9,981 nt of DNA from a virus (taxonomy: Duplodnaviria > Heunggongvirae > Uroviricota > Caudoviricetes). Made by a program: the position numbers and the translations under genes. This document shows, one piece after another, positions 3,544 through 9,981 of the stretch (position 1 is the stretch's first letter; every line of letters begins with the position of its first letter). A model generated the notes under the pieces. That model saw only the letters and a list, made by a program, of their open reading frames with translations, was not told where the DNA came from and made no database searches. The DNA lies in the IMG/VR virus record IMGVR_UViG_2541047944_000001; one strand, 5' to 3'.

Positions 3544-3691
3544 ATTGCTCCGGCTTCTGTTACTCGTTGCTTAAAACGGTATGTTATCCCCGTACGGATC
3601 ATCATTCCCCGCCTGTTGTTTTGGTGTGCTTCGCTGTCATAGGCTTTATCTCACAGCAGTAAATTAAAATTTTTGCGTTTTAACCCTTCAC

Positions 3692-3914
3692 CTGTTCACC
3701 TTTTGATATTTTCTCTTTTAATTCATAATGTTAAGGGGTGAACAGTTTCACAAAAACTATTCACCAACTGTTCACCACTGTTCACCCTTGAAGCTCAATA
3801 AACAATCAAAAAGGTGAACAGTGAATAGTTTGGTGAACAGTTCATAAATAACTGTTCACCCTATAATATACTGATATAAAAGATATTTATGACAGGGTGA
3901 ACAGTGGTGAACAG
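3692..3914. repeat. Iteron array: nine perfect copies of CTGTTCACC / GGTGAACAG in both orientations plus degenerate copies; putative P4-type replication origin (ori or crr-like) with an AT-rich spacer
   Basis: Forward copies at 3692, 3768, 3778, 3852; reverse copies at 3737, 3813, 3832, 3896, 3906; a degenerate ATTCACC at 3759. An AT-rich stretch at 3861..3892 could be an unwinding element. To my recollection TGTTCACC is the octamer bound by phage P4 alpha protein at ori and crr. The array lies immediately downstream of the alpha-like gene. Confidence 0.75.
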
Positions 3915-3927
3915 TTATTCCATAAGT

Positions 3928-5745
3928 TTAATTTTTGCTATCGTCATTAGTGACCGATACACATGATGGCATCCAGTCTTCTGATTCCTCCGTCAGTGTC
4001 ACGTTTGAACGCAAACCGTGCTTCGTTTTCCGTTTCATATACTCCCTGCCATATTCCGCCATTGCCCCCGGCATATCTTTACCGAAGCGCGTCAGTGTTA
4101 CAGGTTTACCAAACCCATGTGCCCTCATATAAGCCAGATAGGCATGATAGAGATACCTGCGTGGGCTGAATGGCACAATTTCAGCATTACCCACTAACAG
4201 GCCATCACACATTACCGACGCCATGAGATAGCCGCAGAAGTCCACCAGCGAATCCCCCTCTCGCTTTATCGCCAGTGCTTCTTCAGATTTCTGCTGCTCA
4301 TATAACAGGCGTCTGGCTTCGTCCTGGTCAGCAAACCGTGTAAGCAGATGGCGAATCACTACCGCCAGCTCACCTTCTATTTTTTCCGCCAGCATTGGAT
4401 CGCGTTCGTTCTCCGGTACAACTTCCGAAAAATTGAATATCACCCGACGACGTGAGATCCCCCCGCTGCGGTCACTGAATGACATGGCGTTATTGTTAAC
4501 CGCCAGCACTACTGCCGGAATACGCGTTGAGTAGGGGGCTTTGTGTTTCGGGTCAATTGCCACCTTGTCACCGCCTGTAATGGCCTTAATCCCTGCCCCA
4601 TCACCAGCGTAGCGGGTCATATCCGGCATGATAATCAGCGAAAAGCCAACCACTAACGCGCGTTCCCTTGCATCTTCCAGCGCCTTCATGCTTGCCGATA
4701 CTGTGTTGGCCTTACCCGCCAGCATGGTGCAAATCTCCGCCATCACGCTTTTACCACTTCCCCCTGGACCTGTTACCTCAATGAATAACTGCCAGTCGTA
4801 CCGGTTCGCCAGCACCATGAATAAGGCAGCCAGTACGCGATCCGCCTTGCGGTCATTCTCAGCCACCGAACGGCGTAACCACTTCCAGAAATTCGGCGCA
4901 TGTGTTGCCAGCGTTTCCCCCTCTGCTGGTGGGCTGAAAGGTAATTCACTGGCAATTAACAACCAGTCGTTTTTGTTATGCTCCCGAAAATTACCTGTTC
5001 TGGTATCAAATACCCCGTTACTGAATCCAATCAGGTTACGGGCTGTATTCCCCATTACAGGCAAACTTAACTTCATGGTATCGACCGCCGATTTAATGGC
5101 GTTCTGCGAATAGCTGATCTCCGCATCAATGAAAATCTGCGCCATAGCACGCTGTAACTCTTTATCCTGAACCGGCTCCCATACAATGCCGTTGTAATGG
5201 TGAACAGTGTCAGAGTCGGCATGAATCGCCAGTTCACCGCCATAATGTGCCAGGAGAACTTCGCCGCGTTGACTTGCTCCCATCTGGTTAAGCGCCAGTG
5301 ATGAAGCGTTATCGTCTTTTACCCGCTCTTTTTTCTTTACAGGCAGTTCAACTACCTTTTTCTTTTCCGCCAGCTCTCCCCGCTCACGTTCCAGATATTC
5401 GCGCCAGTTCTCCCGTTTCTGGCTGTGCATTCCTTCAGGATAATAATCAGCATCCCTGACACCTGCCGCTGCCAGTTTCTGCCCGATGGTATTAACAAGC
5501 CCCGGACGCAATAACCCCGCCTGGTAGAGACGCACGCGATAGCGTCCGTCCGGTACGATTTGCAGGTTGTCCAGTTCGGCAAGTTGTTGCTCTCCAAGCC
5601 AGACAGGTGGCACGTTATCGCCAGCCAGTCGCCCGTCCTGTTCCTGCCACTGCTTCGCATGTGCCCACGCATCACTACCCGCAAAAATGATGACTTCCGT
5701 CATTTTGTCACGCGGCTGGTGTTTTAAATTTGGCGCTTTTTTCAT
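3928..5745 (-). CDS. Replication initiator, P4 alpha-like primase/helicase (SF3 helicase domain with Walker A GPGGSGKS), about 605 aa
   Basis: Long ORF with Walker A motif (VTGPGGSGKSV) in the second half, typical of the P4-family phage/plasmid primase C-terminal domain. The first ATG at 5745 is preceded by GGAGAG and overlaps the stop of the upstream ORF (ATGA); the track's start at 5760 is a GTG. Adjacent TGTTCACC iterons support the call. It is shorter than P4 alpha (777 aa, from memory), so the N-terminal primase domain may be reduced or different. Confidence 0.85.
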   Translation of the reverse strand: MKKAPNLKHQPRDKMTEVIIFAGSDAWAHAKQWQEQDGRLAGDNVPPVWLGEQQLAELDNLQIVPDGRYRVRLYQAGLLRPGLVNTIGQKLAAAGVRDADYYPEGMHSQKRENWREYLERERGELAEKKKVVELPVKKKERVKDDNASSLALNQMGASQRGEVLLAHYGGELAIHADSDTVHHYNGIVWEPVQDKELQRAMAQIFIDAEISYSQNAIKSAVDTMKLSLPVMGNTARNLIGFSNGVFDTRTGNFREHNKNDWLLIASELPFSPPAEGETLATHAPNFWKWLRRSVAENDRKADRVLAALFMVLANRYDWQLFIEVTGPGGSGKSVMAEICTMLAGKANTVSASMKALEDARERALVVGFSLIIMPDMTRYAGDGAGIKAITGGDKVAIDPKHKAPYSTRIPAVVLAVNNNAMSFSDRSGGISRRRVIFNFSEVVPENERDPMLAEKIEGELAVVIRHLLTRFADQDEARRLLYEQQKSEEALAIKREGDSLVDFCGYLMASVMCDGLLVGNAEIVPFSPRRYLYHAYLAYMRAHGFGKPVTLTRFGKDMPGAMAEYGREYMKRKTKHGLRSNVTLTEESEDWMPSCVSVTNDDSKN

Positions 5746-6041
5746 TTCTGCTCTCTCCACGCGGCAATCATGTTTTTCAGTTCCTGTAGTTTTTTATCCA
5801 CATCCACACGTGACACATGGTTATTTCTGGAAGTCGGGATTTCCCGCCGGAATCTGCAAATAAAGATCTCCACGTTCAGCGAACTAAGAAATGAATATCC
5901 ATCACGGATAAAATAAACACGGTCAAACATCAGTTCTTTTACCGTTACTCTGTTACCGTTCTTATCCAGATAAATAGCGCCGGGGATAATTTTGTGGTGT
6001 GCATAACCGCTGGCAGTCAAGCCAGATAAATATGTTCTCAT
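5742..6041 (-). CDS. Hypothetical protein (99 aa), translationally coupled to the primase gene
   Basis: ATG at 6041 with GGGGA upstream; stop overlaps the primase start (ATGA). AT-rich relative to the primase. No recognisable motif. Confidence 0.5.
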   Translation of the reverse strand: MRTYLSGLTASGYAHHKIIPGAIYLDKNGNRVTVKELMFDRVYFIRDGYSFLSSLNVEIFICRFRREIPTSRNNHVSRVDVDKKLQELKNMIAAWREQK

Positions 6042-6047
6042 GATTAT

Positions 6048-6368
6048 TTATCCCCGATTTGAATCAGTATTCGCTTTCTTTATGGCATTTAATGCATCTG
6101 TGGCATTTTCAATGGTGCACCGTAACGAAATATCAAACTGCCCAAGCATTGCCAGTAACAAACCGATATTACCCATATCAATGCGCATGGCCTTTTCGTC
6201 ATAGTCCTCATTTTCTGACGCATGCCACATCAGGCTACCAATTGACGCAATACCCATTGATATATTGTCAGTAGCCCCATCCGCAGCGGAATAAACCTTT
6301 TTAGCAATATCATGCTCACAGTTAAAATGCGGATTAATCAGGTACTGGTAATTTGACATATCAGGCAT
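6048..6368 (-). CDS. Hypothetical protein (106 aa), in an operon with the HNH gene and the primase
   Basis: ATG at 6368 overlaps the HNH stop (6361..6363) by 8 nt. AT-rich. No recognisable motif. Confidence 0.5.
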   Translation of the reverse strand: MPDMSNYQYLINPHFNCEHDIAKKVYSAADGATDNISMGIASIGSLMWHASENEDYDEKAMRIDMGNIGLLLAMLGQFDISLRCTIENATDALNAIKKANTDSNRG

Positions 6369-7038
6369 GGCACACCCCCTGACGAATACGGGCGGCGAAT
6401 ACCATCACGCAGCCAGCCGGAGATTGCTGGCGTGCTTCCTGTTCGCTGGTGGCCTCAATGGTAATCACGCGCGGTTGTGCCGTGCTCAGGGCGATAAAAC
6501 GCCAGATATATTTATTCAGGTTGTGCGATTGCCCATTTCCTTCCCCGTGATTAGCAAATTTACCGTGATGCTGCTCGCGAAATTGTTTTACTACTTGTTC
6601 GGCCTCACAAATATCCGCAAATAGGCCTAGTCGATGGTTTTTTCCGTTAACACGACATTGGGCGCGCCATTTTTTATGCTGCTTACTCCAAGTAACTCCC
6701 TTGACTCCCGATGTATTATTTTTTGCCTTTAATATGTTGTATTGATTTTCTGCGCTCGTTGCTTCGCGGAGGTTAGTAATACGATTATCACTGCGTACCC
6801 CGTTGATGTGATCAATTAAATTTGTAGGCCATTTGCCATAAACATAAAGCCATGCAAGTCGGTGCGCTGCATAAAGCCTGTTTTTAACCCCAATCTGAAT
6901 ATAACCATGACTGGTAAGACACCCAGCAACACTACCATTTTTAACGTTTCTGGCTGGTGGAACTCTCCATGTAAAAACGCCTGTTTCAGGGTCGTAATGC
7001 AGGGTTTCACGTAAGTATTTTTGGGTTAGTTCAGCCAT
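6361..7038 (-). CDS. HNH endonuclease with AP2 DNA-binding domain (homing-endonuclease-like), 225 aa
   Basis: HNH_3-type motif (AHRLAWLYVYGKWPTNLIDHINGVRSDNRITNLREATSAENQYN) followed by an AP2-like domain (SGVKGVTWSKQHKKWRAQCRVNGKNHRLGLFADICEAEQVVKQFREQHHGKFA). ATG at 7038 preceded by GGAGG at 7-nt spacing. Confidence 0.8.
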   Translation of the reverse strand: MAELTQKYLRETLHYDPETGVFTWRVPPARNVKNGSVAGCLTSHGYIQIGVKNRLYAAHRLAWLYVYGKWPTNLIDHINGVRSDNRITNLREATSAENQYNILKAKNNTSGVKGVTWSKQHKKWRAQCRVNGKNHRLGLFADICEAEQVVKQFREQHHGKFANHGEGNGQSHNLNKYIWRFIALSTAQPRVITIEATSEQEARQQSPAGCVMVFAARIRQGVCHA

Positions 7039-7135
7039 GACACGCCTCCAATGTGGAGATACTGGAATAGTCAGGGTGAGTTTGGGTATGCTGTGTTCCA
7101 GCCATAATCGTTACTCCTGTTAACGGTTTGGTTAG

Positions 7136-7179
7136 ACGCCCCGTTACTGCTCCTACAGTGCGGGGCGTTGTTTTTTGTG
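7136..7179 (+). terminator. Putative intrinsic terminator in plus-strand orientation with no obvious upstream plus-strand gene
   Basis: Perfect 8-bp stem ACGCCCCG (7136..7143) / CGGGGCGT (7161..7168) with a 17-nt loop, followed by TGTTTTTTGTG. It lies in the divergent intergenic region between the HNH gene and the RHH gene. Confidence 0.45.
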
Positions 7180-7195
7180 TAATGGTAAGTACAAT

Positions 7196-7235
7196 GGTAA
7201 TTACCATGTAACTATAGTAATCAAGGGTAATTACC
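7196..7235. promoter_or_regulatory. Two copies of the perfect palindrome GGTAATTACC (within a 14-bp direct repeat GGTAATTACCATGT), candidate operator sites overlapping the RHH gene start and the divergent promoter region
   Basis: Palindromes at 7196..7205 and 7226..7235, centre-to-centre 30 bp (about three helical turns). A TATAGT -10-like hexamer (7213..7218) lies between them. The second palindrome abuts the ATG at 7236. Confidence 0.5.
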
Positions 7236-7409
7236 ATGTCAACACCATTAGAGAAACGATCGCCACCATACCAAATGCGACTACCAGAAGAATTTAGAGC
7301 GCAACTTGAGGAGGCAGCCAAGGCAGACGGCGACACCTCATTAGCTACTTGGATTAAACGAATACTCCGCAAAGAATTACAACAGCGCGGTATCGAGCCC
7401 AAAGGCTGA
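7236..7409 (+). CDS. Ribbon-helix-helix (Arc/MetJ-like) DNA-binding protein, 57 aa; candidate repressor; not in the supplied ORF track
   Basis: Translation: MSTPLEKRSPPYQMRLPEEFRAQLEEAAKADGDTSLATWIKRILRKELQQRGIEPKG. The segment YQMRLPEEFRAQLEEAAKADG...SLATWIKRIL matches the Arc-family beta-strand/helix/helix pattern. A strong terminator follows at 7504..7536, and palindromic operators sit at the start codon. Only a weak SD (AAGGG). Confidence 0.6.
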   Translation: MSTPLEKRSPPYQMRLPEEFRAQLEEAAKADGDTSLATWIKRILRKELQQRGIEPKG

Positions 7410-7503
7410 CAGCCAACCAGCAAGCCAGCACACTGATCACATTGCCCACCAGCCGCAAATGTGGCATTGTTGGTGATGCGTTCAAGTTTAGTGTGTATCC
7501 ATT

Positions 7504-7536
7504 GGCGACCGCCCCCGGTCGCCTTTGTTTTATGTG
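7504..7536 (+). terminator. Intrinsic terminator for the RHH transcript (plus-strand orientation), located between the convergent RHH and AlpA-like genes
   Basis: Perfect 8-bp GC-rich stem GGCGACCG (7504..7511) / CGGTCGCC (7516..7523) with loop CCCC, followed by TTTGTTTTATGTG. Confidence 0.6.
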
Positions 7537-7550
7537 CCATCACTCCCCCC

Positions 7551-7739
7551 TTACACCGTCTGCGTTCTGCGAGTGGATGCAAGATAAGCATCGAGATCAG
7601 TGCGCATATACAGCACTTTGCGCCCCAGCTTATGAAAAGGGATTTTTACCTTGCCAGTACACGCCCAGTTAGCAAGAGTCTGGACACTTACCCCCAAATG
7701 CTCGGCAGCTTCTTTGCGGGTCATCTTTTCTAAATGCAT
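7551..7739 (-). CDS. alpA: AlpA / excisionase-family helix-turn-helix DNA-binding protein (MerR-like HTH_17), about 62 aa
   Basis: MTRKEAAEHLGVSVQTLANWACTGKVKIPFHKLGRKVLYMRTDLDAYL is a typical excisionase/AlpA winged-HTH. The ATG at 7739 has GGTGA 5 nt upstream; the track's start at 7748 is a GTG. Position between integrase and replication genes is typical of P4-like and PICI elements. Symbol given by family resemblance only. Confidence 0.7.
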   Translation of the reverse strand: MHLEKMTRKEAAEHLGVSVQTLANWACTGKVKIPFHKLGRKVLYMRTDLDAYLASTRRTQTV

Positions 7740-7811
7740 GAGTATCACCGTATACTTCTGATTAAGAACAGGTATACGTTATTTAGCGATGGGGAAGTCT
7801 TGAAGACAGGA

Positions 7812-7880: not shown

Positions 7881-8567
7881 TTATTCTTTGTCTCCAATAA
7901 CTAACTTAAAATCCCTGTTTTTTTGCGGGGATTTTGGATTCATCCCCGACTCCTTAAGCCATCTCTCTATAGTCCCAACTACAGGGACATCATTCCATTT
8001 ATTGCGTAAGTGCGCGTATATCTCTGCGGATAGCCCGGGTAAACTGGCATTAGGGTATTTTTTCCAAGTGTTACAAGCTATAGATAACGCTGTTGATTTA
8101 TGCCTGTTTGTTTTTCCTTTCTTTGCTTTACTACGGTCTTCACTGATAATTTTCTTTACATTAGCTATATCACGTACTGATTTTAATAAATTCTCCGACA
8201 CTAAAATCGCATATCTTTCACGTAACTGATCTGCAAGTCTGTTGAAACCAAGAACTTCAAATATAATGGCAGCTTTCAAAATATCATTGAATTCTGAATA
8301 TGCACTATTAAATTTTTTATCAAAATCATCTCCATACCCGGCACATACAGAAATATTAACCTTTAAATCCTTATTTTCTATCTCTGACGATAATGATAAT
8401 CTCTCCTCCAGAGACATTTTAGATGGTGTGATATTTGCCATATCGCATATCGTTTTTTTTACAAAAGAAGACGCCAGTTCATATCTAATATAATCTGCAA
8501 TAGTATTCATATCCTTCGCATCATTATGGTCAAATTCTATTGCAGCAATGATTTTATTTTCTGACAT
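7881..8567 (-). CDS. Hypothetical protein (228 aa), AT-rich cargo gene immediately downstream of and overlapping the integrase gene
   Basis: ATG at 8567 preceded by GGTGG; overlaps the integrase stop by 14 nt. By eye roughly 35% GC against roughly 50% for neighbours. No recognisable catalytic motif. Confidence 0.7.
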   Translation of the reverse strand: MSENKIIAAIEFDHNDAKDMNTIADYIRYELASSFVKKTICDMANITPSKMSLEERLSLSSEIENKDLKVNISVCAGYGDDFDKKFNSAYSEFNDILKAAIIFEVLGFNRLADQLRERYAILVSENLLKSVRDIANVKKIISEDRSKAKKGKTNRHKSTALSIACNTWKKYPNASLPGLSAEIYAHLRNKWNDVPVVGTIERWLKESGMNPKSPQKNRDFKLVIGDKE

Positions 8568-9981
8568 TCAAACCACCATTTGAATTAACGATACTAAATA
8601 GTAATGCGCGTTTCTCACTGTCACTCATACTCTCCAGTGCGGAAAGCAATTGCGCATCGATAGATTTTTTACTCTCCACCAGCCCGGCATGTTCCAGAAT
8701 TGCCCGTTCTATCCGTGACGCTGGCTCCAGCAGTTCATCAGCACCAAAATGTAAATACCCCTGCGTTACGTCAGCACTTCGCATAGTACGGTGATTCATC
8801 AGGCGCTTGAGGATGTAATTGCCCACGCCCACCAGTTCGGCAACCGTTCCGAACGTCCGGCGTGCATCGTGCCATTTGAATGGTACAGGGGAGAGCATTT
8901 CATCGTTCGACTCTGGAACAGTAGCCGCGCTTATCCGGTCTATGATGTGCCGTGTTTCCTGAATCACTCCCTTCACACCAGGAAACACCAGAACATCATC
9001 AGCGTTTTTTATTTTCAGTCGGCGGTGGAACATTTCCCGCAACGTATCAGTAATCGGTAATTCGAGCGGATCCCCGTTTTTCGTGGTGTCTATCCAGAAA
9101 AAACGACCGCCCATATTCACGCGATCCCACGTAAGGCCAAAAATTTCTGATTTCCTCAGTCCGGTAAAAAGCGCCATTTCCACGGCATCGCATACCGTCA
9201 CCGCTATATCATCCCTTTCCTGTTCGCCCTGGTCGCGCACAGCAGCTACAGCAGCAAACCAGCGGGGAAAATCATGCAGGCGGATACGTTCCGTTTTTCT
9301 TACCGTTCCGTGCCACTGGCGCTTGGTGCTCAGTACCAGAGTCGGCGGATCCGGTAAAAGAGTATTACCCGCATCATCACGGTAATGATCATGCGCAAAC
9401 CGACACACAGCACGTAGCGCACGCGCCCATAAATCGGCCTGTGCCTTGCTTCCTGTACCAACCCCAGCCCGTAACGTGGTTTTATCAGCACCGAACCATA
9501 CAGCCCCATCAGTGATGGCCTTATGCCGTTGTTCCACCCGTTCGCGGGAAATACTGGCGAGGGTATGGGCCATCCAGTCACCGGAATAATTCTGTAATAT
9601 GCTGCGGTACTGTTTTTCTGTGGCGGGTTTCAGGCGGTGGCCACGATTTTTTACGTAGGCGTCAATCGCCTCACTCAGCGTTATCATGGCCTTGTTGTTA
9701 GTGCGCTTTGCTATGTTCGGATTTATCCCCGTTGTGGCGACTTCGCCAAGGAGTTCCATAGCTTTAGCCCGGGCATTATCCACGCTCAGATCAGGAAAAC
9801 GCCCCAGCGTTGCACGAATAAATTTTCCGTTACGCTTACGGGAAATGCAGAAACTTTTCACACCAGACGAACCTACACGGACACGCAGCCCGTTAACCTC
9901 CGTATCACCATATTCGACCTGTCCATGTTCCGGCGTTGGCAGTTCTGCAATTTTTACTTTAGAGAATCTGAATAATTTCAC
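8554..9981 (-). CDS. int: Tyrosine recombinase / integrase, P4-type (N-terminal arm-binding domain plus C-terminal catalytic domain); 5' end at the window edge
   Basis: N-terminus (...GLRVRVGSSGVKSFCISRKRNGKFIRATLGRFPDLSVDNARAKA...) matches the P4-integrase arm-binding domain pattern. The C-terminus carries a catalytic-type HxxR motif (WHDARRTF) and a candidate Tyr (QGYLH). The ORF reaches position 9981 with a GTG as its first codon, so the true start may be here or just beyond the window. Confidence 0.9.
   Translation of the reverse strand: MKLFRFSKVKIAELPTPEHGQVEYGDTEVNGLRVRVGSSGVKSFCISRKRNGKFIRATLGRFPDLSVDNARAKAMELLGEVATTGINPNIAKRTNNKAMITLSEAIDAYVKNRGHRLKPATEKQYRSILQNYSGDWMAHTLASISRERVEQRHKAITDGAVWFGADKTTLRAGVGTGSKAQADLWARALRAVCRFAHDHYRDDAGNTLLPDPPTLVLSTKRQWHGTVRKTERIRLHDFPRWFAAVAAVRDQGEQERDDIAVTVCDAVEMALFTGLRKSEIFGLTWDRVNMGGRFFWIDTTKNGDPLELPITDTLREMFHRRLKIKNADDVLVFPGVKGVIQETRHIIDRISAATVPESNDEMLSPVPFKWHDARRTFGTVAELVGVGNYILKRLMNHRTMRSADVTQGYLHFGADELLEPASRIERAILEHAGLVESKKSIDAQLLSALESMSDSEKRALLFSIVNSNGGLNVRK

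Follow-up and report, generated by a model that had tools for sequence, protein, structure and literature searches.

A predicted SymR-like antisense RNA opposite the replication operon of an Escherichia coli phage satellite

The window analysed here, a stretch of 9,981 nucleotides, comes from a PICI-type phage satellite of E. coli. A hairpin in its divergent control region is likely to be the terminator and second stem-loop (SL2) of a constitutive RNA of about 77 nt, a cis-antisense RNA of the SymR type that would block the first open reading frame (ORF) of the operon; the predicted RNA probably keeps the satellite replication operon silent. SymR (RyjC) is the antisense RNA that serves as antitoxin in symE/symR, a type I toxin-antitoxin locus of E. 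coli K-12 (PMC1891008), and the RNA of the window is best described, from its sequence and predicted fold, as an antisense RNA of the SymR type that has diverged and occupies a new setting. A preliminary description of this DNA had suggested a short plus-strand antisense transcript starting between 7040 and 7135, and comparative sequence evidence supports this: the RNA would run from A7100 to about 7176, over the Shine-Dalgarno sequence (SD) and AUG of the opposing ORF.

The hairpin is located between the gene of a 57-aa Arc-like protein, the sole convincing plus-strand gene in the region, and the minus-strand replication operon (Table 1). The earlier statement that the upstream genes are on the opposite strand also holds, as the convincing ORFs to the left of the hairpin (the HNH ORF, the ORF behind it, the DUF4222 gene and the primase gene) are all encoded on the minus strand. 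The Arc-like protein matches the PHROG 228 Arc-like repressor family (3e-7) and, below the cut-off, Pfam Arc (0.0057) and NCBIfam YlcI/YnfO_N (0.001). The first ORF of the operon (7105-7031; MAGTQHTQTHPDYSSISTLEACHG) is the leftover of an Icd-like N-terminus, and the intact 121-aa Icd-like protein of a related island (L002) begins with the same N-terminus. Its stop overlaps the start codon of the HNH ORF (ATGGCTGA), which matches Pfam HNH_3 (1.3e-17) and PHROG 99 HNH and carries an Icd-like segment at residues 176-219 (NCBIfam NF033153, 66.8 bits). In the relatives, the first ORF is Icd-like (NF033153); small ORFs in tight overlap come next, ahead of a DUF4222 protein and a primase. No tRNA or tmRNA was found in the window.

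Table 1 Features of the control region and its surroundings, in window coordinates
Feature	Position	Strand	Details or basis
Predicted SymR-like cis-antisense sRNA, ~77 nt	7100-7176	plus	Covariance model R1, fold, alignment with symR
Stem-loop 1 (SL1)	7100-7133	plus	Fold; covariation of helix 1
Stem-loop 2 (SL2)	7135-7169	plus	Core arms 7136-7143/7161-7168, loop 7150-7155
U-tract of predicted intrinsic terminator	7171-7176	plus	G then six U after the stem
-10 hexamer of the sRNA, TATGCT	7087-7092	plus	Inside codons 5-7 of the minus-strand ORF
Target ORF, 24 codons	7031-7118	minus	SD AGGAG 7118-7114, AUG 7105-7103; translation
Operon sigma-70 promoter	7214-7242	minus	TTGACA 7242-7237, 17-nt spacer, TACTAT 7219-7214
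Operator repeats CAAtGGTAATTACCATGT	7192-7209, 7222-7239		Weaker copy 7180-7197
Arc-like ribbon-helix-helix protein, 57 aa	7236-7409	plus	Presumed repressor of the operon promoter
Intrinsic terminator after ribbon-helix-helix gene	7504-7533	plus	Top scan site, 8 pairs, 7 GC, tail TTTGTTTTAT
AlpA-like HTH gene	7551-7748	minus	
228-aa gene, function not assigned	Between integrase and AlpA-like gene in gene list	minus	
Integrase	8554-9981	minus	
Early/replication operon	Starts 7105, runs down through DUF4222 gene and primase	minus	
HNH endonuclease fused in frame to Icd-like C-terminal domain	6361-7038	minus	Operon ORF 2
ORF	6048-6368	minus	
DUF4222 gene	5742-6041	minus	
Primase	3928-5760	minus	
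Protease-capsid fusion	1027-2940	minus	

The inverted repeat noted in the preliminary description is present, with arms ACGCCCCG and CGGGGCGT that are 100% complementary. As RNA, the plus strand folds here into a 14-bp stem with one bulged U and a 6-nt loop (CUCCUA), followed by GUUUUUU, so that the sequence has the G+C-rich stem-loop and U-tract of a Rho-independent terminator. A terminator-pattern scan of the window returned 13 sites, where shuffles gave 9.1 +/- 2.8, and it recognised this hairpin only in part; because such sites are not above chance in the scan, the pattern by itself proves nothing. The fold and its conservation carry more information. Plus-strand positions 7100-7179 (80 nt) reach -34.7 kcal/mol (z = -5.25), a value equalled by none of 200 shuffles. 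At least four U residues lie within 7 nt 3' of SL2 in 40 of 43 distinct homologues, whereas the opposite flank of the stem has 1 A in 7, which argues for a terminator that works one way, rightward. With its U-tract, SL2 is thereby a predicted intrinsic terminator pointing rightward. A direct repeat (CGTTACTCCT at 7109-7118 and CGTTACTGCT at 7142-7151), seen only in the window and in one relative (L044), places a second CUCCU anti-SD motif in the loop of the terminator hairpin.

The first stem-loop of the predicted RNA is antisense to both the SD and the start codon of the first minus-strand ORF: its 5' arm contains CAU (7103-7105), the complement of the start codon, and its apical part carries CUCCU (7114-7118), the complement of the SD. 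A covariance model of the RNA, R1, scores 86.8 bits at 7100-7176, its sole match in the window, and position 1 of the model aligns with the annotated 5' end of K-12 symR. We infer A7100 as the 5' end and place the 3' end to within +/- 3 nt. A -10 hexamer lies 7 nt upstream of this predicted start. Its columns T25, A26 and T30 are invariant in 41 of 41 distinct sequences, which use nine different hexamers, all of the form TAnnnT, and a near-invariant A follows at a fixed distance of 7 nt. At codon 6 of the opposing ORF, the encoded residue varies among H, S, T, Y, C and F while the wobble base stays T, indicating selection on the DNA rather than on the protein. The TG of an extended -10 is present in 14 of the 41 sequences. 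The -35 of the window is weak (TGGAAT, 7063-7068), too weak for a simple promoter scan to have listed the sRNA promoter.

To place the hairpin among homologous islands, relatives were gathered with the Arc-like protein as bait, which made the search blind to the hairpin itself. This gave 48 loci in Enterobacterales, Pasteurellaceae and one Oceanisphaera metagenome-assembled genome; searches of E. coli added further islands, including ones whose divergent regulator is a YlcI/YnfO-type protein. In nearly all relatives, the 130 nt left of the regulator gene share a common layout, consisting of TAnnnT, 7 nt, A-G-Y-C-A-U, hairpin 1, UGGUYAGA, a G+C-rich hairpin 2 and a U-rich tail; as in the window, the CAU mirrors the start codon of the first minus-strand ORF and the apex of hairpin 1 mirrors its SD. 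Each island has a single R1 match, which invariably faces the start of the operon's first gene. A single-query tblastn search for the Icd-like domain missed many of these first genes, but an NCBIfam scan identified most of them as diverged Icd-like proteins. The alignment to R1 comprises 56 matches, 43 of them distinct; standard pairs fill 91.4% of its pair cells, and in 16 of the 26 pairs both partners have changed. The observed values were not reached in any of 500 column shuffles, and sliding the partners by 1-3 columns lowered pairing to 35-50%. Helix 1 has double-sided changes in 7 of its 12 pairs (for example CGUUA/UAACG, CAUUA/UAAUG and CUUA/UAAG) and many G-U pairs, which exist only on the plus strand; helix 2 has them in 9 of 14 pairs, with 93.7% of its cells pairing. 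The hairpin is thus conserved across the homologous islands and both helices covary in the 43 distinct sequences, the outcome for which the preliminary description had proposed a covariation analysis. The loops of the RNA vary freely between islands.

Kinship with SymR rests on R1, on a second model, R2, and on two sub-threshold Rfam matches. The comparison with E. coli K-12 was prompted by a Limnobaculum island (L041, 2347-2432) in which the cassette of Arc-like gene and SymR-like RNA heads a SymE-like gene (NF010128, E 1.9e-9, 37.4 bits, below the equivalog cut-off of 132); no other relative has a SymE-like first gene. R1 matches K-12 symR at 3836-3916 of the K-12 locus (L059), where symR is annotated at 3836-3912, with 38.7 bits (E 3.5e-8); the annotated start is matched and the 3' end agrees within 4 nt. 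R2, built from 30 sequences without the SymE-linked Limnobaculum locus and without any AGUCAU variant, still finds K-12 symR at 33.3 bits (E 3e-6) in a search of 84 kb on both strands with filters off, in which the next unrelated matches score at most 15 bits. The Rfam symR model (RF01809), whose consensus structure consists of the same two hairpins as the predicted sRNA, has no match in the whole window at E <= 1, nor in 651 nt of it at E <= 10. Among 15 relatives scanned, it gives full-length matches in two, at the R1 coordinates (L058, 8660-8732, 34.8 bits; L009, 139-211, 33.2 bits), below its gathering score of 61 bits; K-12 symR itself scores 95.3 bits. In K-12, TAGAAT is followed after 7 nt by the annotated A start of symR, a -10/+1 spacing equal to that of the predicted sRNA. 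The Limnobaculum locus thus appears, from these sequence comparisons, to link the satellite cassette to the K-12 symE/symR locus.

What is established for K-12 SymR extends to the RNA of the window by homology only. There, two silent changes in the -10 hexamer (CATTCT to CACTCC) abolished the symR promoter (Kawano, Aravind and Storz 2007; PMC1891008). SymR is a stable RNA of 77 nt, present in roughly tenfold excess over the symE mRNA, and represses SymE mainly at translation, needing neither Hfq nor RNase III (PMC1891008).

In the window, the predicted RNA opposes an operon that seems set for double control. The operon promoter tops the promoter matches of the window (10/12), and transcription from it would start near 7207. 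Relatives conserve its TTGACA, which falls within the opening codons of the plus-strand gene. The transcript would begin with a leader of some 100 nt, of which positions 7176-7100 are complementary to the sRNA. The 18-bp operator repeats flank or overlap both divergent promoters and bracket that of the operon, and in relatives a different type of divergent regulator comes with a different operator sequence. For the Arc-like gene, the likely -10 is TACAAT (7190-7195). The TTGTTT of the terminator lies 16 nt upstream of it (window 7168-7195), with similar spacing in Yersinia and Xenorhabdus relatives, and the U-tract of the sRNA may therefore double as the -35 of the Arc-like promoter.

Under the mechanism that we propose, transcription of the sRNA would start at the complement of coding nucleotide +6, from a promoter inside the first codons of the opposed gene, and the RNA would read back over the start codon, the SD and some 70 nt of 5' leader in the early/replication operon, which would encode, in order, an Icd-like protein (HNH-interrupted here), a DUF4222/RgdR-like protein and the primase. 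Pairing with the leader would keep ribosomes off the first ORF and might also cost some of the mRNA. Through the tight overlap of the ORFs, such a block would reduce output from the downstream genes as well. What the RNA would oppose directly in the window is the 24-codon remnant ORF, and any downstream effect would depend on the predicted coupling. The antisense RNA would act as a second lock, the first being the divergent Arc-like repressor with its operators covering the operon promoter.

Alternatives to this mechanism differ in the strand and in the mode of action that they assume. As the preliminary description had allowed, the structure could work in the minus-strand mRNA leader, as a stabilising 5' hairpin, by sequestering the ribosome-binding site or as an attenuator, with the terminator-like look of the plus strand being incidental. 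Mirror hairpins can form in the leader (-25.7 kcal/mol, z = -3.64), where the AUG is partly paired to a conserved ACCA, but the target of any antisense pair always carries the mirror fold. A full-length match to the repBA-type leader pseudoknot (RF01089) on the minus strand (7063-7169) is weak, at 20.7 bits against a gathering score of 45; we rejected it as a resemblance in layout only, and apart from it Rfam scans of the window and of the 651-nt region, by gathering score and by E-value, returned only noise. In the covariation alignment, 78% of cells pair in the mirror structure against 91% on the plus strand, a comparison somewhat favoured by the fitting of the alignment to the plus-strand model, and G-U cells number 164 against 19 A-C cells, the would-be G-U pairs of the minus strand. 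Per-sequence energies and a MAFFT-based RNAalifold analysis, both independent of that fit, agree with the plus-strand structure. All 39 of 39 distinct sequences form the same two plus-strand hairpins, starting at nt 1-2, and in all 39 the plus strand is the more stable (mean minimum free energy -32.4 kcal/mol, against -22.2 for the reverse complement); in the window, the fold has z = -5.25 on the plus strand and -3.64 on the minus strand. The excess of G-U over A-C cells, together with a plus strand that is some 10 kcal/mol better in every sequence, indicates that the structure was selected on the plus strand. The minus-strand hairpin, moreover, has no U-tract at its 3' side, and a role in the leader leaves unexplained both the invariant TAnnnT at a fixed distance and the match to symR. 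We regard a leader element as very improbable.

A plus-strand transcript might instead act through its transcription, by collision, by occlusion or through a terminator that insulates the repressor promoter from antisense read-through. The sRNA and operon promoters do face each other about 100 bp apart, and the terminator ends some 20 bp before the likely -10 of the repressor gene, with its U-tract overlapping the possible -35. Yet selection at the RNA level acts on both helices, SL1 among them, for which a mere insulator would have no use, and SymR represses in trans when supplied from a plasmid and is counteracted by an anti-SymR RNA, which restores expression (PMC1891008); interference by transcription is accordingly improbable as the main function. 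The preliminary description had pointed to phage P4, and an immunity RNA of the P1 C4/P4 CI type, or a trans-acting sRNA aimed at host or helper-phage messages, would fit the Icd-like downstream gene, since icd of P1 is under C4 RNA control (PMC8198154); in Pasteurellaceae relatives, the same operon contains Rfam C4 and isrK elements, and CUCCU, a generic anti-SD sequence, occurs in both sRNA loops of the window. The window itself, however, has no match to Rfam C4, c4-a1b1 or isrK, even when 651 nt of it are searched at E <= 10. Unlike C4 and CI, which are excised from the sense transcript, this RNA lies on the opposite strand with its own predicted promoter, and freely varying loops fit a cis pair rather than a conserved trans target. 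This last reading is scarcely credible, and the analogy with P4 CI does not apply, given that Rfam C4/CI is not detected in the window and that the RNA is related to SymR. A C4/CI-type RNA in the minus-strand leader, a candidate suggested by the ACCA after the stem, which resembles an RNase P substrate, was likewise rejected because the window lacks a C4 match and the strand asymmetry favours the plus strand.

The SymR-type antisense RNA remains our preferred reading, and several relatives show how its module has been rearranged. In Photorhabdus (L021-L025), two copies of the module (around 1132-1212 and 2353-2428) lie 1.2 kb apart with a HigB/HigA-like pair between them. The copy beside an intact Icd-like gene keeps an intact SL2, whereas SL2 has decayed in the copy whose operon was replaced by the HigBA-like pair, a sequence comparison that supports a link between RNA and target. 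In two Pasteurellaceae islands, elements on the operon strand score above the Rfam gathering score for C4 (RF01695, clan CL00128; L018 2007-2236 and L039 2010-2241, 66-67 bits), which has no match upstream of icd on that strand of the window. Both islands also carry isrK elements above the gathering score (55-61 bits), and L018 has a sub-threshold c4-a1b1 match (36.6 bits). The C4 and isrK elements lie between the target of the SymR-like RNA and the Icd-like domain, and from the position of C4 these islands combine a P1-type c4-icd module with a SymR-like RNA; their long 'first ORFs' are probably not real. In Xenorhabdus (L005 and L007), the conserved first 13 or so codons (MADTQHNQTRPKF) run straight into a primase, in an ORF longer than 780 aa that starts near 2365 on the minus strand, and in Pectobacterium and Erwinia the first gene encodes an unrelated protein of 113-116 aa. 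The control cassette seems portable.

The island in the window is itself, by sequence comparison, a mosaic. Window positions 7073-7450 are 100% identical to an island in strain 20 that lies inside a prophage terminase gene (a helper-embedded PICI), and the remainder has 98% identity to an island of strain E10 that adjoins a tRNA-Ile gene and has a YlcI/YnfO-type regulator and different operators. An endonuclease gene of the HNH_3/AP2 type sits in frame within the Icd-like gene (6361-7105, minus), an arrangement that looks like a homing-endonuclease insertion; only 2 of 5,426 genomes match at least 80% of 6900-7450, and a further one does so in two pieces. The AT-rich gap just downstream of the primase gene (3690-3925) holds ten or more copies of GGTGAACAGT, in both orientations, which are probably iterons of the satellite replication origin; an Rfam MIR1508 match on these repeats is spurious.

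Sequence similar to 7073-7185 occurs in 1,217 of 5,426 complete E. coli genomes (~22%), and R1 also matches the prototype island EcCICFT073 (L057, 10774-10852, minus) and prophage Sp7 (OI-51) of O157 Sakai (L055, 9429-9506, minus). These place the predicted RNA at complement 1380773-1380851 of NC_004431 in CFT073 and at complement 1597428-1597505 of NC_002695 in Sakai. Our literature search, covering EcCIMP1, GN-PICI, HE-PICI, RgdR, the EDL933 transcriptome and Hfq-CRAC, returned no description of the RNA, nor of SymR in satellites. Hfq-CRAC mapped 64 Hfq-bound orphan sRNAs in O157 Sakai; the sRNA is not among them, and none of them lies in Sp7. Because SymR is Hfq-independent, this absence is weak counter-evidence. 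One Sakai RNA, EcOnc33 (71 nt, with a terminator), was ruled out as this sRNA, being located in Sp6 within a nanS-like gene. The Sp7 operon encodes the virulence regulator RgdR (PMC3378721). RgdR (ECs1581), which regulates type III secretion and motility in O157, is of the same family as the DUF4222 gene of the window and occupies the same operon position in Sp7; the antisense RNA might on that account affect virulence regulation indirectly.

Gram-negative PICIs are widespread, and the predicted RNA gene has so far been left unannotated in many genomes. In their 2018 description, AlpA was the activator and a global repressor was not identified (PMC6092414); over-expression of AlpA led to uncontrolled and harmful replication (PMC6092414). 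A conserved antisense RNA combined with a small, presumed operator-binding repressor, both at the head of the replication operon, offers a testable candidate for negative control of these elements. The finding would also extend the SymR family well beyond its current Rfam boundary and suggests an origin for the K-12 symE/symR locus. More tentatively, and with rather less confidence than we place in the antisense RNA itself, promoter, operators, leader, sRNA and the first ten or so codons might together form a portable control cassette of Gram-negative phage satellites, one found fused to Icd-like genes, to a primase, to a 113-aa protein and to a SymE-like gene. If so, the K-12 symE/symR 'toxin-antitoxin' locus would be the remnant of a domesticated cassette, the antisense RNA and its Arc/YlcI-type repressor would be the negative regulator so far lacking for Gram-negative PICIs, of whose control only the activator AlpA is known, and the freely varying loops may set immunity or incompatibility classes among co-resident satellites.

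The arrangement resembles plasmid copy control, in which a small constitutive antisense RNA opposes the leader and ribosome-binding site of a short first ORF in a replication operon, the leader ORF overlaps the next start codon, and the antisense RNA is paired with a small DNA-binding protein that represses the same promoter. Such pairs of repressor and countertranscript include CopB with CopA in R1, and IncB RNAI with the repBA leader (Rfam PK-repBA). Another is found in pMV158, which pairs the ribbon-helix-helix protein CopG with the RNAII countertranscript (PMC4485353). The likeness does not extend to membership by sequence or model, and the element here is an integrated satellite rather than a plasmid. 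P1 immI offers a second parallel, with double control by the C1 protein repressor and the C4 RNA (PMC8198154): in P1 and P7, C4 blocks an icd-type first gene and the genes behind it, atop a protein repressor (PMC8198154), and the Pasteurellaceae relatives of the island carry a true C4 upstream of the Icd-like domain. C4 and CI differ, however, in being processed from the sense transcript and in pairing through short loops, whereas the RNA of the window is fully complementary to its target, lies on the opposite strand, has its own predicted promoter and terminator, and has no Rfam C4 match.

SymR is the closest known relative. Homology in sequence and structure is found with R1 and R2, although the window RNA has no Rfam match and two relatives reach only 33-35 bits, short of the gathering score of 61. 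Both RNAs, that of the window as predicted, are about 77 nt long and form two hairpins, the first of which starts at nt 1 and closes the 5' end. Each has its -10 among the early codons of the target ORF and, 7 nt further on, an A start complementary to coding nucleotide +6, and each covers, by complementarity, the AUG, SD and leader of its target. They share the sequence blocks AGYCAU, UG(G/A)UUAG and GUG..CAC, and in both settings a transcriptional repressor forms the first lock, although not the same one: LexA in K-12 and, as predicted, the Arc-like protein here. The RNA of the window has a predicted terminator with a canonical U-tract, whereas K-12 SymR has no U-tract, so that the 3' end may form differently. 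The targets differ as well. SymR opposes SymE, an AbrB-fold toxin, whereas in the window an Icd-like remnant, followed by the HNH::Icd-like ORF, heads the primase operon of a satellite; toxicity of the blocked protein is hinted at only by the family name 'host cell division inhibitor Icd-like' (NF033153), for a gene that is split here by the HNH insertion.
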